Positions 22,861 to 64,000 of a DNA stretch of 64,000 nucleotides are shown here, piece by piece. The stretch lies in NCBI RefSeq assembly GCF_964355755.1, contig NC_092677.1, forward strand, positions 24,353,175 to 24,417,174. Direction: 5' to 3'. A program made the position numbers and the translations under genes. Numbering within the stretch: position 1 is the stretch's first letter; each line of letters starts with the position of its first letter. The notes beneath the pieces are model-generated. The model did not search any database, was not told the DNA's origin, and was given only the letters and a program-made list of their open reading frames with translations. The DNA comes from Antedon mediterranea. Taxonomy: Eukaryota > Animalia > Echinodermata.

Positions 22861-25800
22861 ATGTTCATCTTTAAAGACGTAAGAATACTAGTACTAGGCC
22901 TAGTAATAGTACTATTGCCATTCTGTCTCACAAATAAAGTCAAACCTGGTATGTATTAAATGCATTTAAAATTTAGAACTAAAGTGACTGCTTAAACATG
23001 AACTATCATCACTATCTAAGTAGGCCTGTGTCTGAATAATCATGGGCAATGTCAGATATTTTAGATACTATTATCTGTGGGACCGTCTTCTCACAGTAGG
23101 TTGGTGATCATGGACATTCATCTATTTCTGCATTCTTATAATAACTATATCTTTTGTTCATACTTTATGTTGGGTCATTTTTTTTTACTAATTAATACTG
23201 TACTGTGTAAAACATAGATGTTTCGGTTTTTGCCGATTGTTCTCAGGTTTTGTGAAATTGTCAAAACTTTATACGGATAAACCGCATCTCAAGGTATTCA
23301 ATCTTGTTTCAAAGTGTTTTTCTGTTAGTGTTCAAATGTCCACGATACAACAGTATTGACAACACGTAACATTTTTTTTTAGTGTTTGGTTCTGTTAGTG
23401 TTAAAGTTTCCATCATACAACAGTGTTGAAAGCGCGTAGCATTTTGTTAGTGTTTGAATACACGATCAGGTTTTTGCATCGTGTTTGATTCTGTCAGTGT
23501 CCATGTTTCCACCATACAACAGTGTTGAATACATGATCAGGTTTTTGCATCGTTATTGGTTCTGTCAGTGTCCATGTTTCCACCATACAGCAGTGTAACA
23601 TTAATCTGTATCCTGTGGTATGCAGCTGCAATAACGTATCACTGTGTGCGTGTATGGCGAAGTCTATACGTTACCGGAAACAGTCGAATTCCTTTGTTTT
23701 AAAGAAAATCTTATTTTGGAACTTATTAAATTATTATTAACAAGGCCATAATATGCATGGATGCAGTCGCGTGCTCAAGTTAGTGTTTACCAACCAACCG
23801 ACATAGCGAGTGACTCAAAAGCTAAGCATTAAACTATTGGGAACTCATGATACAATACATTCCAATTAATTGTTTATGATGCTTTCTGTTTTCTTTATTT
23901 TTAATTTTAAGGTTTTAACCATATTTTATGTTGAATATAAAATTTTAAGAGGATAATTATTAATAACAGTTTTGCAAATTTGCCATCTATGATTTATTCT
24001 AAAAGTTGTATTCATGTAAATATAATGTTTGATTTACATACCTACTGTACAAAATAATTTTGGACTGATGTTTTTTTTTTATTGGTGAACATCGACGAAT
24101 AGTTCTGTATATAGACTTCACAAACAACATTTTCAGTTTATCCACAGGGTTGCTATGACCACATATATAGGCCTACTGGTGTAGTTTGTTCGCCATGGAA
24201 CATGAATACAGTTGCAGAACTCATTAAGTATAATAAACAAAGCACCATATTAATATTGTAAGTATTGCAGTGTACGTACGGTTGCTTTTAAGTAAATACA
24301 GAATATACTTTGTTTATTTCTCAATGTAAAGGGTATTGCTAAACCGAAAACCTTCAAAAACATAGCAAACCCCATCGAACCAACATAAACAAGTAGAATT
24401 AATTTCGTCACTTTGACGAATTGTAGGTGATCATTGTGATAACAAAATATATTAAAATATGAGCGCAAAGCGTTGTAGTGCTGCTGAGTTGTGTATTGTG
24501 TAGTCTAGTCATAGAATATATAAAGTATATAATATACACGGGTCCCATAGTATGTTCTAATGGCATGATGACGTTATCCAAATCAAAGAAAAAAAATTAC
24601 AGAATTGTAAATCGTCCAAAATAGACCATGATTTATTACTGAGATTTTTTCAAAAACACGGGTGAAATGGACTGATACTGCTAAGGGAGAGAAATGCCTA
24701 ATAAAGTCTACTTTAGTTATAAAATAAGAAAAAAAAGCATTGTATTTTGTAATTATCACACTCTAGGCCCTTAACGTTTATTTTCTCTTCGTTTAGCAAT
24801 TATTTACCGAGAAGCACAAAATGATGTATACAAGTGTTATTTTCAGAAATCTTAATAAATGTGATAATTTATTGTAAAGCGTTTACAACCAGCCTATATT
24901 TAAATTAAATTTCAATAATCTAAAAACGGTTCATTGTTATATTTAGCAGCATAGTAGGCCTGTGGTGTAATGAATAAAACAAGAATACACACAATATGTA
25001 TACATAGATATGTGTGCTTTTTTAATGAAATCAAATCGTTCAATCAAATAACAGGAAATATTCAGGTGTTATATAGTATGGTATAATTAATACTATACCT
25101 ATACCTATGAAGTTAATCATAATGTTATTTACTGCACAATATACACATATTTAAAAAAAAATATGTTAAAACTAGCACATAAATATAGGTCATGCTTATT
25201 GTGTCATATTCTAAATTAAATTCGTCAATATTAAACTGTATGAAAGCAAACTTGTGCCTGAAACTGAAAAGGCTTTCCGTTGCAAAATGTAAATTAAATG
25301 GTAAGTTTAGCAATTATTTGCTAAGCACAAAATGATGTATAAAAGTGTTATTGTCAGAAATATTAATAAAGATGATAATTCATTGCAAAGCATCCACATC
25401 AGTCTATATTTTATCATTTGAATAATTAATAAAATGTTGATTGTCTTTAAATTGTTTAATGAATTATTTAGCAGCACAATATGGTATAATTAATAAAACT
25501 TTCATATTTCACAACTTTTAAGGGAATTGCAAAACAATCAAATTATTGCATTGACAGAGAATGCATTCGCTGGTTTGAAATCATTGGAATGGCTGTAAGT
25601 GACATTGTTTATGTTTACATATCTATGACGTTAATCATAATGTTATTTACTGCACAATATACAAATATTTACAAAACAATATGTTAAAGTAAACTTGAGC
25701 CTGAAACTGTAAAGGCTTTCCGTTGCAAAATGTAAATTAACTAGTAAGTTTAGCAATTATTTGCTGATATGCTCACAATGATGTATAAAAATGTTATTGT

Positions 25801-28800
25801 CAGAAATCTTAATAAAGGTGATATATTCATTGCAAAGCATCGACATCAACCTATATTTATTAATTTGAATTAAAAATAAATGTTGATTGTCTTGTAATTG
25901 TTTAATGAATAATTTAGCAGCATAATATGGTATAATTAATAAAACGATATCTTTTACATTTTACAACTTTGAAGGAGGTTGGAGAACAATCAAATTAGTA
26001 CATTGACAGAGAATGCATTCGCTGGTTTGGAATCATTGGAATGGCTGTAAGTGACGTTGTTTATGTTTACATACCTATGACGTTAATCCTAATGTTATTT
26101 ACTGCACAATATACACATATTTAAAAACAATATTTTAAAACTAGTACATATACATATAGGTCAATGCTTATTGTGTCATATTCAAAATGAAATTCCTCAA
26201 TACTGTATGAAAGAAAACTTGAGCCTGAAACTGTAAAGGCTTTACGTTGCCAAAATGGTGAGTTTAACAATTATTTGCTGATAAGCACACAATGATGTAT
26301 AAAAAGTGTTATTGTCAGAAATATTAATAAATGTGATAATTCATTGCTAAAAATCCAAATCAGTCTATATTTATTCATTTGAATAATTAAAAAAGAATGT
26401 TGATTGTCTTTTAATTGTTTAATGAATTATTTAGCAGTATAGTATGTAGTATCATGAATACAACTTTGTTTTATATTTCACAACTTTGAAGGTACTTGAA
26501 AAACAATCAAATTAGTACATTGACAGCCAATGCATTCGCCGGTTTGAAATCATTGGAAAGCCTGTAGGTGACGTTGTTTATGTTTACCTATGACGTTAAT
26601 AAAAATGTTATTTACTCCACAATATACACATATTTTATACACAATGGAGAGTTTAGCAATTATTTTCTGTTGTGTTATTGTCAGAAATCTTAATAAAGGT
26701 GATAATTCATTGCAAAAAATCCATATCAGTCTATATTTAATTTATATTTCAATAATCTAAAAATGGTTCATTGTTATATTTAATAAGTATTTAGCAGCAT
26801 AGTAGGCCTGTGGTGTAATGAATAAAACAACAATACATACAATATGTATACATAAATATATGATGTGTGCTTTTTTAATGAAATCAAATCATTCAATCAA
26901 ATAACAGGAAATATTCAGGTGTTATTGGTATAATTAATAAAAACTATCTTTTACATTTCATAATTTTGAAGGTGGTTGTTCAACAATCAAATTAGTACAT
27001 TGGCAGAGAATGCATTTGCTGGTTTGGAATCATTGGAAAGGCTGTAAGTGTTATTCTTCATCATATCCACATACGTACTTTCATATATATCATGTTTTAT
27101 ACACATTCAAGCTAGGGGGCATATACACATTCAAGCTAGGGGGCCTACACACATTGTACACACATCGTAACCTTATTAGGTGAAATACTTTTGTCGAAAT
27201 GGATTATTTTCATAGTAATTCATTGTTAGAAAGAGTAAATCAAACTTAGTATTTTATTAGTTTGTTACCAAACTAGTTAACAAATGTAACATTAGAGGAA
27301 TATTTAGCAGTGTATAGCATATGAATCAAATTTAAGTAAGTAAGCTATAAGATTTAATAAGAAATTGTTAATTTTATTCGTATTTATTCATTCATTTCGA
27401 CACACACTAGCCCTGGTATTTATTCTTACAAAGTTATTACAATTTAATCTCACTCTTATTTGCTGTGACGAAATAACTCTCCTCATATACACACCTATTT
27501 AAAAACAATATTTTAAAACTAGTACATAAATATAGGCCAATTAAATTGTGTCATATTCAAAATAAAATTCCTCAACTGTATAGCAAATTTGAGCCTGAAA
27601 CTGTAAAGGCTTTATGAAAATAAGTAAATAGCCTTTACATACCCTATTTTAAATTCTAAAAAGTCTGAAAAAATCTTCAAGTGCAGTCGTGATCGATTAG
27701 TGTATTTGGTAAACTGTATCAAGTGAATTTGTGCCTGAAACTGACAAGGCTTTCCGTTGTAAAATGTAAATTAAATTGTGAGTTTAGCAATTATTTGCTG
27801 GTATTCACACAATGTATTATTGCTATATTGTCAGAAATATTATTAGGTAAAGTTAATTTATGGCCTATATTATTTTAATTAATCCAATAATCTAAAAATC
27901 AGTCATTGTCTTCAATTGAATATTTGGCTAAAACTATATCTTTTACATTTAACAACTTTTAAGGGGTTTGCACTACAATCAAATTAGTACATTGACAGCC
28001 AATACATTCGCTGGTTTGGAATCGTTGAAAGAACTGTAAGTGACATTGATTATGTTTACATACCTATGACGTTAATCCTAATGTTATTTACTCCACAATA
28101 TACACATATTTAAAAAACAATATTTTTAAACTAGTACATAAATATATAGGCCAATGCTTATTGTGTCATATTCAAAATGAAATTCGTCAATATTAAACTG
28201 TATGAAAGCAAACTTGAGCCTGAAACTGTAAAGGCTTTCCGTTGCAAAATGTAAATTAAATGGCGAGTTTAGCAATTATTTTCTGTTAATCACACAATGA
28301 TGTATAAATGTGTTATTTTCAGAAATCTTAATAAATGTGATAATTCATTGCAAAGCATCCACATCAGTCTATATTTATTTATTTTAATAACTAAAAAAAT
28401 GTTGATTGTCTTTTAATTGTTTAATGAATTATTTAGCAGCACAATATGGTATAATTAATAAAACTGTCATATTTCACAACTTTTAAGGTGGTTACAAAGC
28501 AATCAAATTAGAACATTGACAGAGAATACATTCGCTGGTTTGGAATCATTGGAAGGACTGTAAGTGACATTGATTATGTTTACATACCTATGACGTTAAT
28601 CCTAATGTTATTTACTCCACAATATACACATATTTAAAAAACAATATTTTTAAACTAGTACATAAATATATAGGCCAATTCTTATTGTGTCCTATTCAAA
28701 ATGAAATTCCTCAATATTAAACTGTATGAAAGCAAACTTGAGCCTGAAACTGTAAAGGCTTTCCGTTGCAAAATGTAAAATAAATGGCGAGTTTAGCAAT

Positions 28801-31800
28801 TATTTTCTGTTAATCACACAATGATGTATACATGTGTTATTGTCAGAAATCTTAATAAATGTGATAATTCATTGCAAAAAATCCACATCAGTCTATATTT
28901 AATTTATATTTCAATAATCTAAAAATGGTTCATTGTTATATTTAATAAGTATTTAGCAGCATAGTAGGCCTGTGGTGTAATGAATAAAACAACAATACAT
29001 ACAATATGTGATGTAAGATATATGATGTGTGCTTTTTTAATGAAATCAAATCGTTCAATCAAATAACAGGAAATATTCAGGTGTTATATAGTATGGTATA
29101 ATTAATAAAACTATCTTTTACATTTCATAATTATGAAGGTGGTTGTACAGCAATCAAATTAGTACATTGACAGCCAATGCATTCGCTGGTTTGGAATCAT
29201 TGAAATACCTGTAAGTGACGTTGTTTATGTTTACCTATGACGTTAATTATAATGTTATTTACTGCACAATATATACATATTTAAAAACAATAGTTTAAAA
29301 CTAGTACATACAAATAGGCCAATGCTTATTGTGTCATATTCAAAATGAAATTCTCCTATATTAAACTGTATGAAAGCAAACTTGAGCATGAAACTGAAAA
29401 GGCTTTCCGTTACAAAATGTAAATTAAATTGTGAGTTTAGCAATTATTTGCTGATATGCTCACAATGATTGTATAAATGTGTTATTGTCAGAAATATTAA
29501 TAAAGGTGATAATTGATTGCAAAGCATTAACATCATCCTATATTTATTTATTTGAATAATTAAAAAAAATGTTGATTGTCTTTTAATTGTTTAATGAATT
29601 ATTTAGCAGTATAATATGGTATAATTAATAAAACTTTCATATTTCACAACTTTGAAGGAGGTTGCAGTACAATCAAATTAGAACATTGACAGAGAATGCA
29701 TTCGCTGGTTTGAAATCATTGGATAGTCTGTAAGTGACGTTGTTTATGTTTACATACGTATGACATTAATCCTAATGTTATTTACATATAAAAAATCCAC
29801 ATCAGTCTATATTTAATTTATATTTCAATAATCTAAAAATGGTTCATTGTTATATTTAATAAGTATTTAGCAGCATAGTAGGCCTGTGGTGTAATGAATA
29901 AAACAACAATACACACAATATGTATACATAGATATATGGTGTGTGCTTTTTTAATGAAGTAAAATCATTCAATCAAATAACATGAAATATTCAGGTGTTA
30001 TATAGTATGGTATAATTAATAAAAACTATCTTTTACATTTCATAATTTTGAAGGTGGTTGCAAAACAATCAAATTAGTACATTGACAGAGAATGCATTTG
30101 CTGGTTTGGAATCATTGAAAGACCTGTAAGTGTTATTCTTCATCATATCCACATACGTACCTCCATACTGTATATCATGTTATATACACATTACACACAT
30201 TGTACATATACATCGTAACCTTGGTTACTTTTGTCAACATGGATTATTTTCATAATAATTCATTATTGAGTAAATCAAAATTATAGTATTTATTAGTTTG
30301 TTACCAATATTAGGAATATTTAGCATTGTTATAGCCTGTGAATCAAATTTAAGTTAGTTAGCTATAAGATTTAAAAAGACATTTTTAATTTTATTCGTAT
30401 TTATTCATTCATTTTGACACACCAGCCCTGGTTTTTATACTTACAAAGTTATTACAATTTAATCTCACTCTTATTTGTTGTGACGAAATACCTCTCCTCA
30501 AAGAATTGACCAATACATTAACTATTAGCTTAATTAAACAGGTATTTACAGGACAACAATATAACTACTATTGATCAAGGCGCCTTCTCTGTTTTTGCCT
30601 CATCACTTGGAAAACTGTAAGTAATTTATTCTGAAATTCATATGCAGTTTCTCGAAATAATTAATCACTTCAATTAGGTACTTTTCTTATGCTATAAACA
30701 TGTTATCCAAGAAAAAACGGTATCAACAGGATAGGTTTACATACATTTTTTAAACATGGGTAAATTTTTTCATTCATTATTGTATCTGGCTCATTCCATG
30801 GAGTTGAACATGAGAAAGCATTTTAAAAGTTAATCTAACAAGTAGAACAAACAACTTTTTATATAATTAAACATATAAGTAGAAGGATTATCTTAAGTGC
30901 CGACGGTGATAAAAATATTATTTTGAGACTACATTGCATCAGTTAGACACTAAATTGATTGTGGTATACCTTCATTAATACGATATCACTAAAACGACAT
31001 CGGTGCTATCCAAATGAGACATACTCGTAGATATTTAGTTACATGTGAGCTACACTCATTGGCACTGATTTGATATTTGTTTCCATATTTATTTTTTTTT
31101 ACAGAGACATCAGACGCAACAATTTACAAGTTTACAGAGAAAGTACTTTTGAAGAATTGAAATATATAACAGAATTGTAAGTATTATGTCGGATTTAGAA
31201 ATTCTTTATATTCATTAAATGATATTTTTATTTTGTTTTAACACAGTTACCAATTCCACATGCATGCCGACAGTGGCCCAACAAAATTGTTTATGTAGGC
31301 CTACAGCTTTTAGGTTATTTTAAATTTCTCCTTCACTTCTATCTTTTAAATTGGTCGTACACGTCATACTTTTACTATACGAGTAGATTTGATTGGCTGT
31401 AAAGCAGTCGTTATTCCACCTGTTATAGAACTAAAACCATTATAAACATTGTTATAGTAGGCTACTACTGTATTTAACAACTTCCATTAAATTCAATTGT
31501 TTTTTTAACATAGATATTCAGATTTGTTTCGTCTCTGTTGTGTTGTTGGAGAAATTGAAGTATGTGAGCCTACTGATGCTTTTGCGTCCTGCGCTGACTT
31601 ACTAAAGAGAGAAGTTCTTAGGATATTGATGATAGTTATTGGACTGTCATCTTTTATCGGTAACTTGATTGTCATCATATCGCGAAGGATAAACAAAGAA
31701 AATAGGTCTACAGTTGATTCTATTCTACTCACTAATCTTGCCGCGGCTGACTTGCTGATGGCAATTTATTTGCTGATCATCGCAGGTGCAGATATACACT

Positions 31801-32498
31801 ACAGAGGAAGGTACGCGAAGGTTGCCAGCGAATGGAAAAACAGCTTTCTCTGCTCTTTTTCCGGTGCTATTTCAACACTGTCTGGGCAGTGTTCCGTGTC
31901 AACCTTGATGGTTATGAGTATTAACCGTGCTATAAACATCGTCTATCCATTCAGCACCAAACGGCTCAAACGTACGAAATGCAAAATTATCATCGGTATT
32001 GCTTGGCTGGTATGGCTTTTTGTTAGTTTCCTTCCACTGGTAGCTAACAAGTCACATGTCGGCATACCATATTTTGGCGAGAACTACTACGGAAAACAAA
32101 GTGTGTGTCTCGCGTTGCCACTAACACGACATCGATTACCAGGCTGGGAGTACGCCACGGCCATATTCATCGCATTCAATGGCTTGGGTTTTTTTGTTAT
32201 CACAGCAAGTTATTTGACGATTTTCCTCTCCGTTAAGAGATCTGCAATCACGGCTAACAGAATGCAGAGACGAGAAGAGGAAATCAAAATGGCCGTGAAA
32301 CTAGGGTTTATTGTTTTCACCGATTTCTGTTGCTGGTTTCCCATCATAGTAATGGGAATTTGTTCAGAGATGGAGTGGTGGAGAATTCCTGATGATATAT
32401 ACGTTTGGGCAGCAACATTTATAATTCCCATTAACTCATCAGTAAACCCATATCTTTACACAATTATTTATATGTGTAAAAGCGAGCGTAGGCCATAA
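22861..32498 (+). CDS. LRR-containing GPCR copy 1 (RXFP/GRL101-like 7TM), apparently intact, ~674 aa. Exons 22861-22948, 23247-23293, 24148-24257; variable LRR exons 25523-25594, 25975-26046, 26492-26563, 26972-27043, 27964-28035, 28488-28559, 29139-29210, 29658-29729, 30054-30125; fixed LRR exons 30542-30616, 31105-31176; hinge+7TM 31514-32498
   Basis: Signal peptide MFIFKDVRILVLGLVIVLLPFCLT; Cys cap GCYDHIYRPTGVVCSPW; LRRs xLxxNQISTLTENAFAGLESLxxL; hinge CC...CEPTDAFASCADLL; TM motifs GNLIVI, NLAAADLLMAIYL, CLALP, IVFTDFCCWFPI, PINSSVNPYLY. All GT-AG and in phase (2025 nt). Exons 1-2 are less certain than the rest. Confidence 0.88.
23310..23597. repeat. Intronic minisatellite, ~60-70 bp unit (also ~36300-36580 and ~50130-50415)
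   Basis: Repeated TTCTGT(T/C)AGTGT...TCCA(C/T)CATACAACAGTGTTGAA units. Confidence 0.75.
24790..30130 (+). repeat. Array of exon+intron LRR cassettes, copy 1 (9 exons)
   Basis: ~400-1000 bp units sharing intron blocks (GAGCCTGAAACTGTAAAGGCTTTCCGTTGCAAAATG; TTTAGCAATTATTT; GGTATAATTAATAAAAC), each ending in a 72-nt exon. Confidence 0.95.
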
Positions 32499-35400: not shown

Positions 35401-37779
35401 ACAAATATTATTTGTATTTAAAAAACATGAAAAATGAATAATAATTAAAAAAAAATACTTTTTTTAGATCTAATTTTTTGAAAAATTATTATGTGACATT
35501 AAAATGGCATATTAAAAAAAAATATTTAAAACATTATTTTTTCAGGGGGACAATAATCTTTATATTAAAAAAATTAGTTACAGCAGTAAAATACACTCTA
35601 TACATGATGACGTGTGAAGCTCCACAAATCGAAATAATGGATTATCAAAAGAAAAACAATGTTCAATAATTAAATCATATTACACCCACAAACAATAATT
35701 GAATGCATCTGGTAATGTGATTTAAGTGATTGTCATCTTAAAAATGAATGAAGAAATCATAAAATAATAAGACCTATGCATTATACTAGAGAGCTTTTCA
35801 CAAACTAACGGTTCATTTCTATTACCGATTTAATACGTATGTAAGAAGATGTTCATCTTTAAAGACGCAAGAATACTAGTACTAGGCCTAGTACTAGAAC
35901 TATTGCCATTCTGTCTCACAAATAAAGCCAGACCTGGTATGTATTAAATGCATTTAAAATTTAGAACTAAAGTGACTGCTTAAACATGAACTATCATCAC
36001 TATCTAAGTAGGCCTGTGTCTGAATAATCATGGGCAATGTCAGATATTTTAGATACTATTATCTGTTCTGGGACCGTCTTCTCACATCTATTTCTGCATT
36101 CTTATAATGTATATAATAATATTATATAATATATATATAATGTTCATACTTTATGTTGGGTCATTTTTTTTACCAATTAATACTGTAACTGTGTAAAACA
36201 TAGATGTTTCGGTTTTTGCCGATTGTTCTCAGGTTTTGTGAAATGTCAAAACTTTATACGGATAAACCGCATCTCAAGGGATTCAATCTTGTTTCAAAGT
36301 GTTTTTCTGTTAGTGTTCAAATGTCCACGATACAACAGTATTGACAACACGTAACATTTTTTTTAGTGTTTGGTTCTGTTAGTGTTAAAGTTTCCATCAT
36401 ACAACAGTGTTGAAAGCGCGTAGCATTTTGTTAGTGTTTGAATACACGATCAGGTTTTTGCATCGTGTTTGATTCTGTCAGTGTCCATGTTTCCACCATA
36501 CAACAGTGTTGAATACACGATCAGGTTTTTGCATCGTGTTTGGTTCTGTCAGTGTCCATGTTTCCACCATACAGCAGTGTAACATTAATCTGTATCCTGT
36601 GGTATACAGCCGCAATAACGTATCACTGTGTGCGTGTATGGCGAAGTCTATACGTTACCGGACACAGTCGAATTCCTTTGTTTTAAAGAAAATCTTATTT
36701 TGGAACTTATTAAATTATTATTAACAAGGCCATGTGCATGGCTGCTGTCGCTTGCTCAAGTTAGTGTTTACCAACCAACCGACCGACATAGTGAGCGCGT
36801 TGCACGCGACTCAAAAGCTAAGCATTAAACTATGGGGAACTCATGATACAATACATTCCAATTAATTGTTTATGATGCTTTCTGTTTTCTTTATTTTTAA
36901 TTTTAAGGTTTTAACCATATTTTATGTTGAATATAAAATTTTAAGAGGATAATTATTAATAACAGTTTTGCAAATTTGCCATCTATGATTTATTCTAAAA
37001 GTTGTATTCATGTAAATATAATGTTTGATTTATACATACCTACTGTACAAAATAATTTTGGACTAATGTTTTTTTTTATTGGTGAACATCGACGAATAGT
37101 TCTGTATATAGACTTCACAAACAACATTTTCAGTTTATCCACAGGGTTGCTTTGAACACATATATCCTGGTTTAGTTTGTTCGACATGGAACATGAATAC
37201 AGTTGCAGAACTCATTAAGTATAATAAACAAAGCACCATATTATCATTGTAAGTATTGCAGTGTACGTACGGTTGCTTTTAAGTAAATACAGAACATACT
37301 TTGTTTATTTCTCAATGTAGAGGGTATTGCTAAACCGAAAACCTTCACAAACATAGCAAACCCCATCGAACCAACATAAACAAGTAGAATTAATTTCGTC
37401 ACTTTGACGAATTGTAGGTGATCATTGTGATAACAAAATATATTAAAATATGAGCGCAAAGCGTTGTAGTGCTGCTGAGTTGTGCCTATTGTGTAGTCTA
37501 GTCATAGAATATATAACGTATATAATATACACGGGTCCCATATATGTTCTAATGGCATGATGACGTTATCCAAATCAAAGAAAAAAAATTACAGAATTGT
37601 AAATCGTCCAAAATAGACCGTGATTTATTACTGAGATTTTTTCAAAAACACGGGTGAAATGGACTGATACTGCTAAGGGAGAGAAATGCCTAATAAAGTC
37701 TACTTTAGTTATAAAATAAGAAAAAAAGCATTGTATTTTGTAATTCTCACACTCTAGGCCCTTAACGTTTATTTTCTCT

Positions 37780-40700
37780 TCGTTTAGCAATTATTTACCG
37801 AGAAGCACAAAATGATGTATACAAGTGTTATTTTCAGAAATCTTAATAAATGTGATAATTTATTGTAAAGCGTTTACAACCAGCCTATATTTAAATTAAA
37901 TTTCAAAAATCTAAAAACGGTTCATTGTTATATTTAGCAGCATAGTAGGCCTGTGGTGTAATGAATAAAACAACAATACACACAATATGTATACATAGAT
38001 ATGTGTGCTTTTTTAATGAAATCAAATCGTTCAATCAAATAACAGGAAATATTCAGGTGTTATATAGTATGGTATAATTAATAAAACTATCTTTTACATT
38101 TCATAATTATGAAGGTGGTTGTACAGCAATCAAATTAGTACATTGACAGCCAATGCATTCGCTGGTTTGGAATCATTGAAATACCTGTAAGTGACGTTGT
38201 TTATGTTTACCTATGACGTTAATTATAATGTTATTTACTGCACAATATATACATATTTAAAAACAATAGTTTAAAACTAGTACATACAAATAGGCCAATG
38301 CTTATTGTGTCATATTCAAAATGAAATTGTCCTATATTAAACTGTATGAAAGCAAACTTGAGCCTGAAACTGTAAAGGCTTTCCGTTGCAAAATGTAAAT
38401 TAAATGGCGAGTTTAGCAATTATTTTCTGTTAATCACACAATGATGTATAAATGTGTTATTTTCAGAAATCTTAATAAAGGTGATAATTCATTGCAAAAA
38501 ATCCACATCAGTCTATATTTATTCATTTTAATAATTAAAAAAATGTTGAATGTATTTTAATTGTTTAATGAATTATTTAGCAGTATAATATGGTATAATT
38601 AATAAAACTGTCATATTTCACAACTTTTAAGGTGGTTGCAAGGCAATCAAATTAGTACATTGACAGCCAATACATTCGCTGGTTTGGAATCATTGGAAGA
38701 ACTGTAAGTGACATTGATTATGTTTACATACCTATGACGTTAACCGTAATGTTATTTACTGCACAATATACACACATTTAAAAACATTATTTTAAAACTA
38801 GTACATAAATATAGGCCAATGCTTATTGTGTCATTATTCAAAATGAAATTCGTCAATATTAAACTGTATAAAAGCAAACTTGAGCCTGAAACTGTAAAGG
38901 CTTTCCGTTTCAAAATGTAAATTAAATGGTGAGTTTAGCAATTATTTTCTGTTAATCACACAATGATGTATAAATGTGTTATTGTCAGAAATCTCAATAA
39001 ATTAATTCATTGCAAAAAATCCACATCAGTCTATATTTATTCATTTTAATAATTAAAAAAATGTTGAATGTATTTTAATTGTTTAATGAATTATTTAGCA
39101 GTATAATATGGTATAATTAATAAAACTGTCATATTTCACAACTTTTAAGGTGGTTGCAAGGCAATCAAATTAGTACATTGACAGCCAATACATTCGCTGG
39201 TTTGGAATCATTGGAAGAACTGTAAGTGACATTGATTATGTTTACATACCTATGACGTTAACCGTAATGTTATTTACTGCACAATATACACACATTTAAA
39301 AACATTATTTTAAAACTAGTACATAAATATAGGCCAATGCTTATTGTGTCATTATTCAAAATGAAATTCGTCAATATTAAACTGTATAAAAGCAAACTTG
39401 AGCCTGAAACTGTAAAGGCTTTCCGTTTCAAAATGTAAATTAAATGGTGAGTTTAGCAATTATTTTCTGTTAATCACACAATGATGTATAAATGTGTTAT
39501 TGTCAGAAATCTCAATAAATTAATTCATTGCAAAAAATCCACATCAGTCTATATTTAATTTATATTTCAATATTCTAAAAATGGTTCATTGTTATATTTA
39601 ATAAGTATTTAGCAGCATAGTAGGCCTGTGGTGTAATGAATAAAACAACAATACATACAATATGTGATGTAAGATATATGATGTGTGCTTTTTTAATGAA
39701 ATCAAATCGTTCAATCAAATAACATGAACTTTTCAGGTGTTATATAGTATGGTATAATTAATAAAAACTATCTTTTACATTTCATAATTTTGAAGGCAGT
39801 TGTACAACAATCAAATTAGTACATTGACAGCCAATGCATTTGCTGGTTTGGAATCATTGAAAGAACTGTAAGTGTTATTCTTCATCACATCCACATACGT
39901 ATTTCCATATATATCATGTTTTATACACATTACACATATTTAAAACTAGTACATAAATATAGGACAATGCTTATTGTGTCATATTCTAAATTAAATTCCT
40001 CAATATTAAATTGTATGAAAGCAAACTTGAGCCTGAAACTGTAAAGGCATTCCGTTGCAAAATGTAAATTAAATGGCGAGTTTAGCAATTATTTGCTGAT
40101 ATGCTCATAATGATTGTATAAATGTGTTATTGTCAGAAATCTTAATAAATGTGATAATTCATTGCAAAAAATCCACATCAGTCTATATTTAATTTATATT
40201 TCAATAATCTAAAAATGGTTTATTGTTATATTAAATAAGTATTTAGCAGCATAGTAGGCCTGTGGTGTAATGAATAAAACAACAATACACACAATATGTA
40301 TACATAGATATATGGTGTGTGCTTTTTTAATGAAATCAAATCGTTCAATCAAATAACATGAAATATTCAGGTGTTATATAGTATGGTATAATTAATAAAA
40401 ACTATCTTTTACATTTCATAATTATGAAGGTGGTTGGAAAACAATCAAATTAGTACATTGACAGCCAATGCATTCGCTGGTTTGGAATCATTGAAATACC
40501 TGTAAGTGACGTTGTTTATGTTTACCTATGACGTTAATTATAATGTTATTTACTGCACAATATATACATATTTAAAAACAATAGTTTAAAACTAGTACAT
40601 ACAAATAGGCCAATGCTTATTGTGTCATATTCAAAATGAAATTGTCCTATATTAAACTGTATGAAAGCAAACTTGAGCCTGAAACTGTAAAGGCTTTCCG

Positions 40701-43700
40701 TTGCAAAATGTAAATTAAATGGCGAGTTTAGCAATTATTTTCTGTTAATCACACAATGATGTATAAATGTGTTATTTTCAGAAATCTTAATAAAGGTGAT
40801 AATTCATTGCAAAAAATCCACATCAGTCTATATTTATTCATTTTAATAATTAAAAAAATGTTGAATGTATTTTAATTGTTTAATGAATTATTTAGCAGTA
40901 TAATATGGTATAATTAATAAAACTGTCATATTTCACAACTTTTAAGGTGGTTGCAAGGCAATCAAATTAGTACATTGACAGCCAATACATTCGCTGGTTT
41001 GGAATCATTGGAAGAACTGTAAGTGACATTGATTATGTTTACATACCTATGACGTTAACCGTAATGTTATTTACTGCACAATATACACACATTTAAAAAC
41101 ATTATTTTAAAACTAGTACATAAATATAGGCCAATGCTTATTGTGTCATTATTCAAAATGAAATTCGTCAATATTAAACTGTATAAAAGCAAACTTGAGC
41201 CTGAAACTGTAAAGGCTTTCCGTTTCAAAATGTAAATTAAATGGTGAGTTTAGCAATTATTTTCTGTTAATCACACAATGATGTATAAATGTGTTATTGT
41301 CAGAAATCTCAATAAATTAATTCATTGCAAAAAATCCACATCAGTCTATATTTATTCATTTTAATAATTAAAAAAATGTTGAATGTATTTTAATTGTTTA
41401 ATGAATTATTTAGCAGTATAATATGGTATAATTAATAAAACTGTCATATTTCACAACTTTTAAGGTGGTTGCAAGGCAATCAAATTAGTACATTGACAGC
41501 CAATACATTCGCTGGTTTGGAATCATTGGAAGAACTGTAAGTGACATTGATTATGTTTACATACCTATGACGTTAACCGTAATGTTATTTACTGCACAAT
41601 ATACACACATTTAAAAACATTATTTTAAAACTAGTACATAAATATAGGCCAATGCTTATTGTGTCATTATTCAAAATGAAATTCGTCAATATTAAACTGT
41701 ATAAAAGCAAACTTGAGCCTGAAACTGTAAAGGCTTTCCGTTTCAAAATGTAAATTAAATGGTGAGTTTAGCAATTATTTTCTGTTAATCACACAATGAT
41801 GTATAAATGTGTTATTGTCAGAAATCTCAATAAATTAATTCATTGCAAAAAATCCACATCAGTCTATATTTAATTTATATTTCAATATTCTAAAAATGGT
41901 TCATTGTTATATTTAATAAGTATTTAGCAGCATAGTAGGCCTGTGGTGTAATGAATAAAACAACAATACATACAATATGTGATGTAAGATATATGATGTG
42001 TGCTTTTTTAATGAAATCAAATCGTTCAATCAAATAACATGAACTTTTCAGGTGTTATATAGTATGGTATAATTAATAAAAACTATCTTTTACATTTCAT
42101 AATTTTGAAGGCAGTTGTACAACAATCAAATTAGTACATTGACAGCCAATGCATTTGCTGGTTTGGAATCATTGAAAGAACTGTAAGTGTTATTCTTCAT
42201 CACATCCACATACGTATTTCCATATATATCATGTTTTATACACATTACACATATTTAAAACTAGTACATAAATATAGGACAATGCTTATTGTGTCATATT
42301 CTAAATTAAATTCCTCAATATTAAATTGTATGAAAGCAAACTTGAGCCTGAAACTGTAAAGGCATTCCGTTGCAAAATGTAAATTAAATGGCGAGTTTAG
42401 CAATTATTTGCTGATATGCTCATAATGATTGTATAAATGTGTTATTGTCAGAAATCTTAATAAATGTGATAATTCATTGCAAAAAATCCACATCAGTCTA
42501 TATTTAATTTATATTTCAATAATCTAAAAATGGTTTATTGTTATATTAAATAAGTATTTAGCAGCATAGTAGGCCTGTGGTGTAATGAATAAAACAACAA
42601 TACACACAATATGTATACATAGATATATGGTGTGTGCTTTTTTAATGAAATCAAATCGTTCAATCAAATAACATGAAATATTCAGGTGTTATATAGTATG
42701 GTATAATTAATAAAAACTATCTTTTACATTTCATAATTATGAAGGTGGTTGGAAAACAATCAAATTAGTACATTGACAGCCAATGCATTCGCTGGTTTGG
42801 AATCATTGAAATACCTGTAAGTGACGTTGTTTATGTTTACCTATGACGTTAATTATAATGTTATTTACTGCACAATATATACATATTTAAAAACAATAGT
42901 TTAAAACTAGTACATACAAATAGGCCAATGCTTATTGTGTCATATTCAAAATGAAATTCTCCTATATTAAACTGTATGAAAGCAAACTTGAGCATGAAAG
43001 TGAAAAGGCTTTCCGTTACAAAATGTAAATTAAATTGTGAGTTTAGCAATTATTTGCTGATATGCTCACAATGATTGTATAAATGTGTTATTGTCAGAAA
43101 TCTTAATAAATGTGATAATTCATTGCAAAGCATCCACATCAGCCTATATTTATTCATTTTAATAATTAAAAAAATGTTGATTGTCTTTTAATTGTTTAAT
43201 GAATTATTTAGCAGTATAATATGGTATAATTAATCAAACTTTCATATTTCACAACTTTGAAGGGGGTTGTTCAACAATCAAATTAGAACATTGACAGAGA
43301 ATGCATTCGCTGGTTTGGAATCATTGGAAATTCTGTAAGTGACGTTGATTATGTTTACAAACCTATAAAGTTAATCATAATGTTATTTACTCCACAATAT
43401 ACACAGATTAAAAAACAATATTTTTAAACTAGTACATAAATATATAGGCCAATGCTTATTGTGTCATATTCTAAATGAAATTCCTCAACATTAAACTGTA
43501 TGAAAGCAAACTTGAGCCTGAAACTGTAAAGGCTTTCCGTTTCAAAATGTAAAATAAATTGTGAGTTTAGCAATTATTTTCTGTTAATCACACAATGATG
43601 TATAAATGTGTTATTTTCAGAAATCTTAATAAATGTGATAATTCATTGCAAAAAATCCACATCAGTCTATATTTAATTTATATTTCAATAATCTAAAAAT

Positions 43701-43990
43701 GGTTCATTGTTATATTTAATAAGTATTTAGCAGCATAGTAGGCCTGTGGTGTAATGAATAAAACAACAATACACACAAAATGTATACATAGATATATGGT
43801 GTGTGCTTTTTTAATGAAGTCAAATCATTCAATCAAATAACATGAAATATTCAGGTGTTATATAGTATGGTATAATTATTAAAAACTATCTTTTACATTT
43901 CATAATTTTGAAGGTTGTTGCAAAACAATCAAATTAGTACATTGACAGAGAATGCATTTGCTGGTTTGGAATCATTGAAAGACCTGTAAG
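37780..43990 (+). repeat. Array of exon+intron LRR cassettes, copy 2 (11 exons), with a 2315-bp four-cassette duplication and a 518-bp single-cassette duplication
   Basis: Exon starts 38632/40947, 39150/41465, 39796/42111 and 40430/42745 differ by 2315 and encode identical peptides; 38632/39150 differ by 518. Confidence 0.95.
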
Positions 43991-45350
43991 TGTTATTCTT
44001 CATCATATCCACATACGTACCTCCATACTGTATATCATGTTATATACACATTACACACATTGTACATATACATCGTAACCTTATTTTGTTACTTTTGTCA
44101 ACATGGATTATTTTCATAATAATTCATTATTGAGTAAATCAAAATTATAGTATTTATTAGTTTGTTACCAATATTAGGAATATTTAGCCTGTGAATCAAA
44201 TTTAAGTTAGTAAGCTATAAGATTTAAAAAGAAATTTTTAATTTTATTCGTATTTATTCATTCATTTTGACACACCAGCCCTGGTTTTTATTCTTACAAA
44301 GTTATTACAATTTAATCTCACTCTTATTTGTTGTGACGAAATACCTCTCCTCATAGAATTGACCAATATACATTAACTATTAGCTTAATTAAACAGGTAT
44401 TTACAGGACAACAATATAACTACTATTGATCAAGGCGCCTTCTCTGTTTTTGCCTCATCACTTGGAAAACTGTAAGTAATTTATTCTGAAATTCATATGC
44501 AGTTTCTCGAAATAATTAATCACTTCAATTAGGTACTTTTCTTATGCTATAAACATGTTATCCAAGAAAAAGCGGTATCAACAGGATAGGTTTACATACA
44601 TTTTTTAAACATGGGTAAATTTTTACATTCATTATTGTATCTGGCTCATTCCATGGAGTTGAACATGAGAAAACATTTTAAAAGTTAACAACTTTTTATA
44701 TAATTAAACATATAAGTAGAAGGATTATCTTAAGTGCCGACGGTGATAAAAATATTATTTTGAGACTACATTGAATCAGTTAGACACTAAATTGATTGTG
44801 GTATACCTTCATTAATACGATATCACTAAAACGACATCGGTGCTATCCAAATGAGACATATTCGTAGATATTTAGTTACATGTGAGCTACACTCATTGAC
44901 ACTGATTTGATATTTGTTTCCATATTTTTTTTTTTTTTACAGAGACATCAGACGCAACAATTTACAAGTTTACAGAGAAAGTACTTTTGAAGAATTGAAA
45001 TATATAACAGAATTGTAAGTATTATGTCGGATTTAGAAATTCTTTATATTCATTAAATGATATCTTTATTTTGTTTTAACACAGTTACCAATTCCACATG
45101 CATGCCGACAGTGGCCTAACAAATTGTTTATGTAGGCCTACAGCTTTTAGGTTATTTTAAATTTCTCCTTCACTTCTATCTTTTAAATTGGTCGTACACG
45201 TCATACTTTTACTATACGAGTAGATTTGATTGGCTGTAAAGCAGTTGTTATTCCACCTGTTATAGAACTAAAACCATTATAAACATTGTTATAGTAGGCT
45301 ACTACTGTATTTAACAACTTCCATTAAATTCAATTGTTTTTTTAACATAG

Positions 45351-46335
45351 ATATTCAGATTTGTTTCGTCTCTGTTGTGTTGTTGGAGAAATTGAAGTAT
45401 GTGAGCCTACTGATGCTTTTGCGTCCTGCGCTGACTTACTAAAGAGAGAAGTTCTTAGGATATTGATGATAGTTATTGGACTGTCATCTTTTATCGGTAA
45501 CTTGATTGTCATCATATCGCGAAGGATAAACAAAGAAAATAGGTCTACAGTTGATTCTATTCTACTCACTAATCTTGCCGCGGCTGACTTGCTGATGGCA
45601 ATTTATTTGCTGATCATCGCAGGTGCAGATATACACTACAGAGGAAGGTACGCGAAGGTTGCCAGCGAATGGAAAAACAGCTTTCTCTGCTCTTTTTCCG
45701 GTGCTATTTCAACACTGTCTGGGCAGTGTTCCGTGTCAACCTTGATGGTTATGAGTATTAACCGTGCTATAAACATCGTCTATCCATTCAGCACCAAACG
45801 GCTCAAAGGTACGAAATGCAAAATTATCATCGGTATTGCTTGGCTGGTATGGCTTTTTATTAGTTTCCTTCCACTGGTAGCTAACAAGTCACAGGTCGGC
45901 ATACCATATTTTGGCGAGAACTACTACGGAAAACAAAGTGTGTGTCTCGCGTTGCCACTAACACGACATCGATTACCAGGCTGGGAGTACGCCACGGCCA
46001 TATTCATCGCATTCAATGGCTTGGGTTTTTTTGTTATCGCAGCAAGTTATTTGACGATTTTCCTCTCCGTTAAGAGATCTGCAATCACGGCTAACAGAAT
46101 GCAGAGACGAGAAGAGGAAATCAAAATGGCCGTGAAACTAGGGTTTATTGTTTTCACCGATTTCTGTTGCTGGTTTCCCATCATAGTAATGGGAATTTGT
46201 TCAGAGATGGAGTGGTGGAGAATTCCTGATGATATATACGTTTGGGCAGCAACATTTATAATTCCCATTAACTCATCAGTAAACCCATATCTTTACACAA
46301 TTATCTATATGTGTAAAAGCGAGCGTAGGCCATAA
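45351..46335 (+). CDS. Hinge + 7TM terminal exon of LRR-GPCR copy 2 (open)
   Basis: ORF 45361..46335 differs from copy 1 at only 4 of 324 aa (R>G, V>I, H>Q, T>A). Confidence 0.9.
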
Positions 46336-49657: not shown

Positions 49658-52600
49658 ATGTTCATCTTTAAAGACGTAAGAATACTAGTACCAGGCCTAG
49701 TAATAGTACTATCGCCATTCTGTCTCACAAATAAAGTCAAACCTGGTATGTATTAAATGCATTCAAAATTTAGAACTTAAGTGACTGCTTAAACATGAAC
49801 TATCATCACTATCTAAGTAGGCCTGTGTCTGAATAATCATGGGCAATGTCAGATATTTTAGATACTATTATCTGTTCTGGGACCGTCTTACCCAGTACCG
49901 TTTTGATCGTACGATTAATCGGGAAACCACCTCACGACATCTATTTCTGCATTCTTATAATAACTATATCTTTTGTTCATACTTTATGTTGGGTCATTCT
50001 TTTTTTACTAATTAATACTGTACTGTGTAAAACAGATGTTTCTGTTTTTGCCGATTGTTCTCAGGTTTTGTGAAATTGTCAAAACTTTATACGGATAAAC
50101 CGCATCTCAAGGTATTCAATCTTGTTTCAAAGTGTTTTTCTGTTAGTGTTCAAATGTCCACGATACAACAGTATTGACACAAGACGTAACATTTTTTTTT
50201 TAGTGTTTGGTTCTGTTAGTGTTAAAGTTTCCATCATACAACAGTGTTGAAAGCGCGTAGCATTTTGTTAGTGTTTGAATACACGATCAGGTTTTTGCAT
50301 CGTGTTTGATTCTGTCAGTGTCCATGTTTCCACCATACAACAGTGTTGAATACACGATCAGGTTTTTGCATCGTGTTTGGTTCTGTCAGTGTCCATGTTT
50401 CCACCATACAGCAGTGTAACATTAATCTGTATCCTGTGGTATACAGCCGCAATAACGTATCACTGTGTGCGTGTATGGCGAAGTCTATACGGTACCGGAC
50501 ACAGTCGAATACCTTTGTTTTAAAGAAAATCTTATTTTGGAACTTATTAAATTATTATTAACAAGGCCATATGCATGGATGCAGTCGCGTGCTCAAGTTA
50601 GTGTTTACCAACCAACCGACACAGTGTTGCACGCGACTCAAAAGCTAAGCATTAAACTATGGGGAACTCATGATACAATACATTCCAATTAATTGTTTAT
50701 GATGCTTTCTGTTTTCTTTATTTTTAATTTTAAGGTTTCAACCATATTTTATGTTGAATGTAAAATTTTAAGAGGATAATCATTAATAACAGTTTTGCAA
50801 ATTTGCCATCTATGATTTATTCTAAAAGTTGTATTCATGTAAATATAATGTTTGATTTATACATACCTACCGTACAAAATAATTTTGGACTAATGTTTTT
50901 TTTATTGGTGAACATCGACGAATAGTTCTGTATATAGACTTCACAAACACAATTTTCAGTTTATCCACAGGGTTGCTCAGGCCAAAATTTATTTCCTGGT
51001 GTAGTTTGTTCACCATGGAACATGAAAACAGTTGCAGAACTCATTAAGTATAATAAACAAAGCACCATATTAACATTGTAAGTATTGCAGTGTACGTACG
51101 GTTGCTTTTAAGTAAATACAGAACATACTTTGTTTATTTCTCAATGTAGAGGGTATTGCTAAACCGAAAACCTTCACAAACATAGCAAACCCCATCGAAC
51201 CAACATAAACAAGTAGAATTAATTTCGTCACTTTGACGAATTGTAGGTGATCATTGTGATAACAAAATATATTAAAATATGAGCGCAAAGCGTTGTAGTG
51301 CTGCTGAGTTGTGCCTATTGTGTAGTCTAGTCATAGAATATATAACGTATATAATATACACGGGTCCCATATATGTTCTAATGGCATGATGTAGTTATCC
51401 AAATCAAAGAAAAAAAATTACAGAATTGTAAATCGTCCAAAATAGACCATGATTTATTACTGAGATTTTTTCAAAAACACGGGTGAAATGGACTGATACT
51501 GCTAAGGGAGAGAAATGCCTAATAAAGTCTACTTTAGTTATAAAATAAGAAAAAAAGCATTGTATTTTGTAATTCTCACACTCTAGGCCCTTAACGTTTA
51601 TTTTCTCTTCGTTTAGCAATTATTTACCGAGAAGCACAAAATGATGTATACAAGTGTTATTTTCAGAAATCTTAATAAATGTGATAATTTATTGTAAAGC
51701 GTTTACAACCAGCCTATATTTAAATTAAATTTCAAAAATCTAAAAACGGTTCATTGTTATATTTAGCAGCATAGTAGGCCTGTGGTGTAATGAATAAAAC
51801 AACAATACACACAATATGTATACATAGATATGTGTGCTTTTTTAATGAAATCAAATCGTTCAATCAAATAACAGGAAATATTCAGGTGTTATATAGTATG
51901 GTATAATTAATACTATACCTATACCTATGAAGTTAATCATAATGTTATTTACTGCACAATATACACATATTTTTAAAAAAATATGTTAAAACTAGCACAT
52001 AAATATAGGCCATGCTTATTGTGTCATATTCTAAATTAAATTCGTCAATATTAAACTGTATGAAAGCAAACTTGTGCCTGAAACTGAAAAGGCTTTCCGT
52101 TGCAAAATGTAAATTAAATGGTAAGTTTAGCAATTATTTGCTAAGCACAAAATGATGTATAAAAGTGTTATTGTCAGAAATCTTAATAAATGTGATAATT
52201 CATTGCAAAGCATCCACATCAGTCTATATTTTATCATTTGAATAATTAATAAAATGTTGATTGTCTTTAAATTGTTTATTGAATTATTTAGCAGCACAAT
52301 ATGGTATAATTAATAAAACTTTCATATTTCACAACTTTTAAGGGAATTGCAAAACAATCAAATTATTGCATTGACAGAGAATGCATTCGCTGGTTTGAAA
52401 TCATTGGAATGGCTGTAAGTGACATTGTTTATGTTTACATATCTATGACGTTAATCATAATGTTATTTACTGCACAATATACAAATATTTACAAAACAAT
52501 ATGTTAAAGTAAACTTGAGCCTGAAACTGTAAAGGCTTTCCGTTGCAAAATGTAATTAACTAGTGAGTTTAGCAATTATTTGCTGATATGCTCACAATGA

Positions 52601-58600: not shown

Positions 58601-58616
58601 CGAGCGTAGGCCATAA
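49658..58616 (+). pseudogene. LRR-GPCR copy 3 with premature stop. Exons 49658-49745, 50065-50111, 50971-51077; 7 variable LRR exons (starts 52343, 52915, 53431, 54392, 55026, 55544, 56195); 56678-56752, 57224-57295, 57632-58616
   Basis: TGG>TGA at 58131-58133 in TM4 splits the 7TM ORF into 57642..58133 and 58221..58616. The signal peptide also has L>P and L>S changes. Confidence 0.8.
54032..54346. mobile_element. 315-bp palindromic insertion unique to copy 3
   Basis: Absent from the matching introns of copy 2. Long hairpin (ACAAATAATGAATGTTT...AAAGGTTATATCAAC / GTTGATATAACCTTT...AAACATTCATTATTTGT); AGGTGTTATATAGTAT repeated at 54016 and 54331. Confidence 0.85.
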
Positions 58617-62100: not shown

Positions 62101-64000
62101 ATACATAACATCATTGGAATAAAAAGAACAAATCACATATCTACACATAATCATAACATCGTATACTCTATCTCTAACAATTTATTCAATCTTCTATCGA
62201 CTAAAGCCGAAGTATAGTCGTTATCTCGGGACCGTTCTATGGCCACCACCAGGTAGGCTTACTTCATTAAGGCTTCTATGAATGGATGTACTGGTTGGGA
62301 GCAGGAACGCTAGTAGACCAAACCCAGTACCGCTTTGATTACGATCAATCGGGAAATTACCTCATGACGATATATAGGCCTAGGTGCCGACATAGGACTC
62401 TAGCAGGAATGTACTTTCTAGTCATTTCTCACATTCAAAATCTACACTTTTGCACTAACAAACTTTTCCTATTTCTACATCCTAAACTGCTTTTTTATTT
62501 TTCTACCATCATACCTTCTATATTTTCATCCTTTATCTATTATACGATATAAACAGCATTACACGCATACATCGTAACGCGAGCATTTCATTCTATACGC
62601 ATACGCACTTTTATCGAACATAATTTAAACCAAACCAAATCATACATACAACGATAAGACATCAACCGATTCAGTTCAAAACCAGTTTAAGGTAAACATT
62701 TTAAATTAAAATTAATTTATGTTTCTATCCACTCTACCATTTTCATATAAAGATATTGTGGAACCACGTCAGGTCAAGTTCAATATTGAATATCGAAACG
62801 TGGCAGGCTGAAGGCGCTTGACCTTTGACAAGATCGCCTAAATTTTTAATATATTAACTTTACAATACTTAGTGTTGTATATTCTGGTACAGCCGCTCCA
62901 TAATCTCTTTGCTTTTCTTCCTTATATCTATATTTTTTAATTTATACTAACAAATATCTTTTTTATTAATATAATAATAATAATATATCAAAAATTTATT
63001 AAATAATATTCATCGCATAATATGCAATCTACGATAATTTAATTAATTGATATAACAAATTTATTAAATACATAACATCATTGGAATAAAAAGAACAAAT
63101 CACATATCTACACATAATCATAACATCGTATACTCTATCTCTAACAATTTATTCAATCTTCTATCGACTAAAGCCGAAGTATAGTCGTTATCTCGGGACC
63201 GTTCTATGGCCACCACCAGGTAGGCTTACTTCATTAAGGCTTCTATGAATGGATGTACTGGTTGGGAGCAGGAACGCTAGTAGACCAAACCCAGTACCGC
63301 TTTGATTACGATCAATCGGGAAATTACCTCATGACGAAGTATAGTCGTTATCTCGGGACCGTTCTATGGCCACCACCAGGTAGGCTTACTTCATTAAGGC
63401 TTCTATGAATGGATGTACTGGTTGGGAGCAGGAACGCTAGTAGACCAAACCCAGTACCGCTTTGATTACGATCAATCGGGAAATTACCTCATGACTTTCT
63501 AGTCATTTCTCACATTCAAAATCTACACTTTTGCACTAACAAACTTTTCCTATTTCTACATCCTAAACTGCTTTTTTATTTTTCTACCATCATACCTTCT
63601 ATATTTTCTTTCTTTATCTATTATACGATATAAACAGCATTACACGCGTACATCGTAACGCGAGCATTTCATTCTATACGCATACGCACTTTTATCGAAC
63701 ATAATTTAAACCAAACCAAATCATACATACAACGATAAGACATCAACCGATTCAGTTCAAAACCAGTTTAAGGTAAACATTTTAAATTTAAATTAATTTA
63801 TGTTTCTATCCACTCTACCATTTTCATATAAAGATATTGTGGAACCACGTCAGGTCAAGTTCAATATTGAATATCGAAACGTGGCAGGCTGAAGGCGCTT
63901 GACCTTTGACAAGATCGCCTAAATTTTTATATATTAACTTTACAATACTTAGTGTTGTATATTCTGGTACAGCCGCTCCATAATCTCTTGGCTTTTCTTC
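59184..64000. repeat. Tandem array of ~967-971 bp units: ~1.8 units in one orientation (59184-60962), then >=3 units inverted (60968-64000)
   Basis: The same 88-aa ORF occurs at 59971..60237(-), 61319..61585(+) and 62286..62552(+); periods are 971 and 967; inversion junction GGATGATGATG|AATCTC. Confidence 0.95.

Follow-up and report, generated by a model that had tools for sequence, protein, structure and literature searches.

How does a receptor gene assembled from many homologous one-repeat exons renew the surface with which it is predicted to bind its ligands: by exchange of exons in the DNA, or by variable joining of exons in the RNA? The question is raised by a stretch of 64,000 nucleotides (nt) from the crinoid Antedon mediterranea (assembly GCF_964355755.1, contig NC_092677.1, positions 24,353,175 to 24,417,174 of the forward strand), hereafter the window, in whose own numbering all positions are given. 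A gene for a leucine-rich repeat (LRR) G-protein-coupled receptor (GPCR) occurs in the window as three tandem copies, all on the same strand, the repeated unit beginning at about 21.1, 34.1 and 48.0 kb. [quoted passage not shown] The variable exons number nine, eleven and seven in copies 1, 2 and 3, respectively (27 in total, 15 distinct), and copy 1 has an open reading frame of 629 codons that runs from exon 2 to its stop codon. An earlier note on this DNA had proposed that skipping or swapping of such exons creates new binding strands in frame. We consider it likely that unequal crossing-over or gene conversion between homologous introns adds, removes and exchanges the one-repeat exons, and that selection diversifies the predicted binding face.

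All 27 variable exons have the same form, AG/G + 23 codons + CT/GT (strokes mark exon borders), with a length of 72 nt and phase 2-2, so that what the earlier note had described for the nine exons of copy 1 extends to all copies. The position of the intron, too, is as described there: the strand reads L1-x2-x3-L4-x5-L6-x7-x8-N9 and is split within the codon of L4. In an AlphaFold model of the Antedon relative P0003, the strand spans x3 across the split Leu in all five regular repeats that are given a strand there; the model, computed from a single sequence with no alignment (predicted local distance difference test, pLDDT, about 60-80 in the LRR part, mean 40), served for strand positions only. 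The interval 25523..31176 given in the earlier note contains the nine variable exons of copy 1, together with two fixed LRR exons (75 nt at 30542 and 72 nt at 31105) that show no difference between copies 1 and 2. The variable repeats are about 82% identical. The pairing of junctions with hypervariable flanking codons had been singled out as the unusual part, and rightly so: x2 and x3 on one side of the border and x5, x7 and x8 on the other are the most variable positions, and only 3 of the 3003 possible sets of five non-consensus positions match or exceed them in amino-acid change. Among the 15 distinct exons, x3 takes eight residue types, x5 seven, x7 six, x8 four and x2 three; x10, x17, x20 and x24 take one each.

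The most direct evidence of exchange comes from the arrays themselves. The 7TM exons of the copies differ by 5 and 1 nt of 985, yet the arrays hold nine, eleven and seven variable exons. One exon is identical in the three copies (1.7 = 2.1 = 3.2) and has a different upstream partner in each, with the joins mapped inside introns. Two mosaic introns, one in copy 2 and one in copy 3, and an exact duplication of one exon with its flanks in copy 2 (see the table) give three strands whose halves are paired with other partners elsewhere (n = 3 joins, copies 2 and 3); a further exact duplication in copy 2, with a period of 2315 bp, changed the repeat number without making a new strand. The 30 junctions of the three copies encode 20 distinct strands, and copy 3 as a whole is a mosaic of copy-1-like 5′ parts and copy-2-like 3′ parts. 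The three mosaic joins inside introns are shuffling at the DNA level, whether by loss or by gain. Since the new strand pairings are seen as joins in the DNA, the proposal that joining non-adjacent exons makes new in-frame strands is right at this level; the acceptor argument that had tied it to exon skipping is not, as set out below. Contigs of the sequencing runs X1, X5 and X6 (73, 68 and 50, respectively, that align to one cassette exon) carry further variants, as fragments rather than arrays. Joints between cassette introns in the DNA of runs X1, X5 and X9 were not counted, given that they may come from other arrays or from misplaced repeats.

With respect to selection, nucleotide diversity (11 distinct units, alignable donor-side introns) is 0.451 in the codons of the five concave-face positions, 0.165 in introns and 0.063 in the rest of the exon. 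The highest value in any 15-nt intron window is 0.386, and none of 100000 random draws of 15 intron sites reaches 0.451. Because the concave codons are far more diverse than either the introns or the rest of the exon, diversifying selection is indicated, and positive selection on the predicted concave-face positions x2, x3, x5, x7 and x8 is likely. Both exon pairs that differ by a single base (2/2) carry a replacement at x5 or x8, and a pair that differs by three bases does so at x7, x7 and x8. The same five positions form the most variable set (1/3003) in 21 distinct repeats from nine A. mediterranea relatives, with relatives picked by hand and repeats filtered by pattern. An entropy scan of 35 homologs, 15 of them with at least four regular repeats, gave a mixed picture: the concave positions are the more variable in 11 of the 15, and clearly so in just the two Antedon proteins. 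Exon 2 differs between the copies by 7, 13 and 10 substitutions in about 105 nt, along with in-frame indels, against 0-5 per 200 nt of flank. Its loop is hypervariable, exists in three versions that are far more diverged than the introns of the exon, and recalls the cap loops of the variable lymphocyte receptors (VLRs); a contig of run X1 carries a further version.

The mechanism that we propose would operate as follows. The homologous intron units would let misaligned chromatids cross over or convert, and such intronic exchange would homogenise the scaffold, alter the number of repeats and re-pair half-strands. As the intron lies midway in the β-strand, an ancestral LRR layout, a crossover within it would join two residues of one exon with three of another, in frame, and would in this way yield new strands. 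Replacements by point mutation, both on the concave face and in the loop of the N-cap, would supply new residues, to be retained by selection. We infer that the germline is where exchange takes place, that full-length mRNA predominates and that selection rather than mutation bias accounts for the pattern. The outcome would be a receptor family that varies between copies and probably between animals, in which recognition of a changing ligand is coupled to G-protein signalling. As to the ligands, analogy makes us lean slightly towards fast-changing foreign or allo-molecules and hence immune-type recognition. A pattern of this kind is seen in ROCO LRRs (PMC3341825) and in VLR concave faces (PMC3900441), and Biomphalaria has a hyperdiverse GRL101-like cluster in a schistosome-resistance locus (PMC12297450). 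Chemosensory or reproductive recognition would be alternative roles.

Several points weigh against this account. Within the concave codons, pN/pS (replacement versus synonymous differences) is 0.44/0.37 for the 15 exons and 0.46/0.44 for copy 1, which by codons alone does not show a dN/dS well above 1, and the case for selection rests on the comparison with introns and with other synonymous sites (0.09); multi-base differences and linkage may inflate pS in these codons. Moreover, concave positions are the most variable ones in many LRR proteins anyway. The exact repeats of 2517 nt within copy 2 and of 3487 nt between copies 2 and 3 could be assembly artefacts, exon count and order in these copies rest on this single assembly, and one assembly does not separate a germline from a somatic origin. 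Furthermore, the sensory tentacles of a starfish are enriched in expression of a GRL101-like gene, as would suit a role outside immunity (PMC6267866).

Two alternative explanations draw on these points. The first is neutral turnover of tandem repeats, in which units expand and contract in the manner of a minisatellite and the variable codons are simply unconstrained surface positions. The near-unity of pN/pS within the concave codons, the premature stop in TM4 of copy 3 and the highly recombinogenic nature of the units are all compatible with it. Unconstrained sites, however, should be as diverse as introns (0.165), whereas the concave codons reach 0.45; the surface positions x10, x17, x20 and x24 show no amino-acid change; and exon 2 is more diverged than its own introns, all of which makes neutral turnover very unlikely in our assessment. 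The second alternative is that wrongly joined reads or haplotypes of one single gene account for copies 2 and 3 and for the internal duplications, as the two long exact matches might suggest, along with the tangled 967-bp repeat, in both orientations, that directly follows copy 3. Yet each copy has private features (the exon-2 loops, exon 3.3, the stop and a 300-nt insertion), a sister subfamily in A. mediterranea is likewise multi-copy with differing repeat numbers, and copy 1, with its nine distinct exons, is unaffected in any case. An assembly artefact on this scale thus appears improbable, and exchange within introns of a genuine tandem family is the reading that we retain.

The other half of our initial question concerns the variable joining of exons in the RNA. 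As had been stated for copy 1, every subset of its nine variable exons stays in frame: computed joining of the 512 subsets gives 512 distinct stop-free proteins, with 47 possible strands compared to the 10 encoded by neighbouring exons. The stop-free subsets of copies 2 and 3 number 2048 and 128 and give 928 and 128 distinct proteins, with 28 and 33 possible strands against eight encoded in each. In human NLRs, the exon border always falls at one position within the β-sheet and the LRR exons preserve the frame, the same being true of typical-class LRR families (Hoss 2019, PMC6642158), and the introns of gonadotropin receptors are all in phase 2 (Teng 2024, PMC11378527). The split strand and the preserved frame are the ordinary, inherited layout of multi-exon LRR genes and, because a strand-splitting, frame-preserving border is general in such genes, they are no sign of a splicing design.

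As to the splice signals, the earlier note had seen weak pyrimidine tracts (such as TTTTAAG) at the variable acceptors, but in copy 1 the pyrimidine fraction at -20..-5 is 0.62-0.69 for the nine variable exons as against 0.75, 0.56, 0.81 and 0.69 for the four fixed ones; only the strongest fixed exon (31105) had been used for comparison, and of all 13 acceptors that of the fixed 75-nt exon (30542) is the weakest. The donors of the variable exons match the consensus GTAAGT in 26 of 27 cases, the AG-free zones of their acceptors span 42-61 nt, and alternative acceptors of the NAGNAG type occur at only two of the 27. All 27 variable acceptors share an A at -3 (AAG), which none of the four fixed acceptors of copy 1 has; these 27 acceptors stem from one duplicated unit, and the shared A is one inherited state that counts as one event. 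Pairing between a docking site and selectors is a feature of Dscam-type splicing; for the nine copy-1 acceptors no shared pairing site was found in the first intron, where two of the nine beat all but 2-3 of 40 shuffles, at differing places, and the search for inverted repeats suited to RNA pairing returned only short AT-rich ones. Run X8, guessed to be RNA, proved uninformative and was set aside as splicing evidence: its contigs lie within introns and over the exon-intron border at 31088-31288 and contain no joints.

Combinatorial exon skipping, in which one gene would give many isoforms and each skipped junction would form a new strand, can be credited with the stop-free subsets of all three copies and their many strands beyond the encoded ones, with the non-consensus A at -3 throughout the variable acceptors, and with the precedent of LRR exon skipping known from NLRP3 and from the ROCOs of brown algae (up to nine transcripts). 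The tracts no weaker than those of fixed exons, the consensus donors, the AG-free zones of 42-61 nt and the lack of a common pairing site in the first intron speak against it; the preserved frame is generic, and genomic shuffling already accounts for the diversity seen. We therefore regard skipping as unlikely. A more elaborate version, in which skipping of LRR exons would endow each cell with its own repertoire (from copy 1, as many as 512 isoforms and 47 strands) on top of germline shuffling, as a Dscam-like generator wired to G-protein signalling, strikes us as quite doubtful.

The shuffling of one-repeat exons has its closest known counterpart in the LRR-ROCO genes of brown algae (Zambounis 2012, PMC3341825; Teng 2024, PMC11378527), in which, as in all 27 variable exons here, one LRR is encoded per 72-nt phase-2 exon, and recent paralogs are unequal in exon number (ROCO 13 versus 17), just as the young copies of the window, in the present assembly, differ in exon number and order with recombination inside introns. 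The algal proteins have positively selected concave sites, and an immune role has been put forward for them; the corresponding values here are a diversity of 0.45 versus 0.165 in introns and the pN/pS of 0.44/0.37. In contrast to the cytoplasmic algal GTPases, the crinoid gene has no Roc-COR GTPase domain and ends in a 7TM domain. Moreover, according to the published exon consensus, the algal β-strand lies inside one exon, so that shuffling reorders strands, whereas the split strand of the crinoid exons allows shuffling to create new ones. The algal loci also contain inverted or dead intronic LRRs, none of which is present here, as well as annotated splice variants. Human NLRs and typical-class multi-exon LRR genes (Hoss 2019, PMC6642158) share with the crinoid array the fixed exon border within the β-sheet and the frame-preserving exons; they differ in their old, diverged repeats and few splice isoforms, compared to about 82% identity, five focused positions and an exon number that varies between copies in the window.

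The VLRs of lampreys and hagfish (PMC3900441) resemble the predicted crinoid ectodomain in their 24-residue repeats, concave variability, variable repeat number and variable cap loop, but arise by somatic insertion of donor cassettes into an incomplete gene and lack a 7TM domain, whereas the genes here are complete and their exons are spliced. The possibility that the crinoid array is itself rearranged in immune cells in the VLR manner could appeal to the 24-residue repeats with a variable concave face and to the homologous introns as substrates for recombination. However, each gene is complete and open in the assembly, and no orphan or inverted donor cassette occurs in the 64-kb window, all 27 matches to the exon core falling in the three arrays and none on the minus strand. 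The incomplete germline gene flanked by donor cassettes that typifies VLR loci is thus not what we find, copy 1 being open, and somatic rearrangement seems to us exceedingly improbable.

The receptor module itself suggests a place for the gene near the GRL101-type (C2) LGRs. The 7TM exon matches the rhodopsin family PF00001, the LRR ectodomain is followed by a Cys-rich hinge as in these receptors, and the best matches of the window gene are crinoid proteins annotated as "GRL101-like"; a second search with one of these returned nine Antedon and two Anneissia proteins among 31 rows. The nearest solved relatives in a PDB sequence search are RXFP1 and LGR4. In a 7TM tree of 37 named rows, from which unnamed rows and alignments of fewer than 250 residues were left out, the window gene groups at 100/99 with P0039 (XP_071959546.1, Antedon mediterranea; 96% identical in the 7TM domain) within a 14-row crinoid clade (99/100) whose members lack an LDLa Pfam match and which adjoins LDLa-bearing crinoid receptors; it is nested in a crinoid clade (100/98) that includes the LDLa-bearing members; a single relaxin-type row, on a long branch, and no GRL101 of Lymnaea were part of this tree. 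In the window, tblastn with the N-terminal parts of five LDLa-bearing relatives gave no match under E 0.2, and the LDLa motif occurs zero times in six frames, compared to one or two occurrences in each of three control proteins; no CUB or lectin domain was found there either. Given that no LDLa was found, the gene probably represents a GRL101-derived, LDLa-less lineage and not canonical GRL101. GRL101-type receptors, including the SudRes2 cluster of Biomphalaria (PMC12297450), share with it the rhodopsin 7TM domain, the LRR ectodomain and the arrangement in tandem clusters, and differ in bearing multiple N-terminal LDLa repeats, whereas the crinoid gene, without LDLa, CUB or lectin domains, has a young, homogenised LRR array of variable length. 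The snail cluster shows presence/absence variation; the accessible part of that paper does not describe shuffling of LRR exons. The window accordingly shows a hypervariable LRR array, exon-shuffled in ROCO-like fashion, on a crinoid GPCR that lacks LDLa and probably derives from GRL101.

Other searches add detail on the relatives. P0039 has two variable exons, identical to none of the 15 distinct ones in the window; its RefSeq model begins inside a cassette intron, whose translation agrees with it at 19 of 19 residues, and holds only these two variable exons. Several sister models have odd N-termini as well, so that the family, misannotated as it is, would escape routine surveys and is probably under-annotated. 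The sister genes P0064 and P0067 of A. mediterranea have a C-terminal array in common; in automated models, one has about two N-terminal repeats more than the other. The leader and exon 2 gave no significant BLASTP match to P0038, and a HMMER search with P0038 against 1.84 billion representatives was swamped by long LRR proteins and added nothing; the identification of exon 2 as the N-cap is suggested by its position and its likeness, by eye, to P0006. Our literature searches, which covered few subscription papers, returned no published description of such an array in crinoids. Type C2 receptors are orphans (PMC11863921), and canonical GRL101, of which each ambulacrarian has one ortholog, has been put forward as an insulin-like growth factor receptor (10.1101/2021.04.15.440029). 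Octopus GPCR expansions include some LRR-bearing members (PMC6408891), the accessible part of that paper giving no exon-level detail.

If the proposed reading is correct, echinoderms would have, in the least studied of their classes, a further candidate recognition system: a GPCR whose LRR face is VLR-like, exon-shuffled and hypervariable. The immune diversity of echinoderms is otherwise known from large TLR families and SpTransformer. Junctional diversity generated by intronic recombination would have a testable case here, and the orphan GRL101-like receptors would gain a concrete hypothesis, one consistent with the resistance locus of the snail.

Table. Features of the three receptor gene copies and of the exchanged segments in the window.
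Feature	Position	Strand	Remarks
Probable leader exon, copy 1	23574..23651	+	predicted from sequence; signal-peptide-like hydrophobic stretch; donor 23645 or 23651, both phase 0
Exon 2, copy 1	24148..24257	+	predicted N-cap with the first half-strand; phase 0-2; length 110/104/107 nt in copies 1/2/3 through in-frame indels; loop variable
Variable array, copy 1	25523..30125	+	nine 72-nt phase-2 LRR exons in homologous intron units; starts 25523, 25975, 26492, 26972, 27964, 28488, 29139, 29658, 30054
Fixed 75-nt LRR exon, copy 1	30542..30616	+	acceptor the weakest in this gene
Fixed terminal 72-nt LRR exon, copy 1	31105..31176	+	
Hinge and intronless rhodopsin-type 7TM exon, copy 1	31514..32498	+	stop 32496-32498; PF00001, E 1.2e-30
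Gene copy 2	36558..46335	+	exon 2 37145-37248; eleven variable exons 38115-43985; fixed exons 44397, 44943; 7TM 45351-46335
Mosaic intron, copy 2	37249..38114	+	over ~800 nt 96-100% identical to intron 1.0, from there exact to intron before exon 1.7; strand LS/WYS
Exact 518-bp-period duplication, copy 2	38485..39557	+	one exon and flanks placed behind itself, 555-nt match; strand EE/WQG
Gene copy 3	50395..58616	+	exon 2 50971-51077; seven variable exons 52343-56266; fixed exons 56678, 57224; 7TM 57632-58616
Mosaic intron, copy 3	52415..52914	+	exact to intron after exon 1.1 up to +141, exact to intron before exon 1.7 from +253; strand EW/WYS

The leader exon is conserved in all three copies (at 36558 and 50395 in copies 2 and 3). 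Two further exon candidates were rejected: a 48-nt in-frame stretch at 31247-31294, given that the relatives pass directly from the last LRR into the hinge, and a pattern match at 23952, 36948 and 50775, which is a chance match with a poor donor. The 7TM exon of copy 3 contains a premature TGA at 58131-58133, in TM4 by position, which is its sole difference from copy 2 over 985 nt; it may mark a pseudogene, a truncated decoy or a sequencing error.

Several repetitive elements accompany the genes. An insertion of about 300 nt, unique in the window, lies at 54032-54332 in a cassette intron of copy 3; with an internal palindromic stretch of about 180 nt (85%) and a duplication of about 13 nt at its flanks, it looks like a small non-autonomous element. 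Beginning about 0.6 kb past copy 3, the region 59184-64000 is made up of a 967-bp unit in both orientations, 98-100% identical, which cuts off the downstream sequence common to copies 1 and 2 and may be a satellite, a foldback element or an assembly tangle. In the first 21,000 nt (1-21000), where no long open reading frame or clear gene was found, there are short inverted repeat pairs (12254/13495, 14420/16473 and 18976/20239) and minisatellites. Tandem repeats of about 70 bp (23313-23596, 36298-36580 and 50270-50417) lie just upstream of the probable start codon of each copy and overlap it. Finally, introns 1 and 2 contain short, high-copy interspersed repeats (23751-23802 and 24356-24437), on which contigs of four sequencing runs pile up to very high depth with many loose ends.

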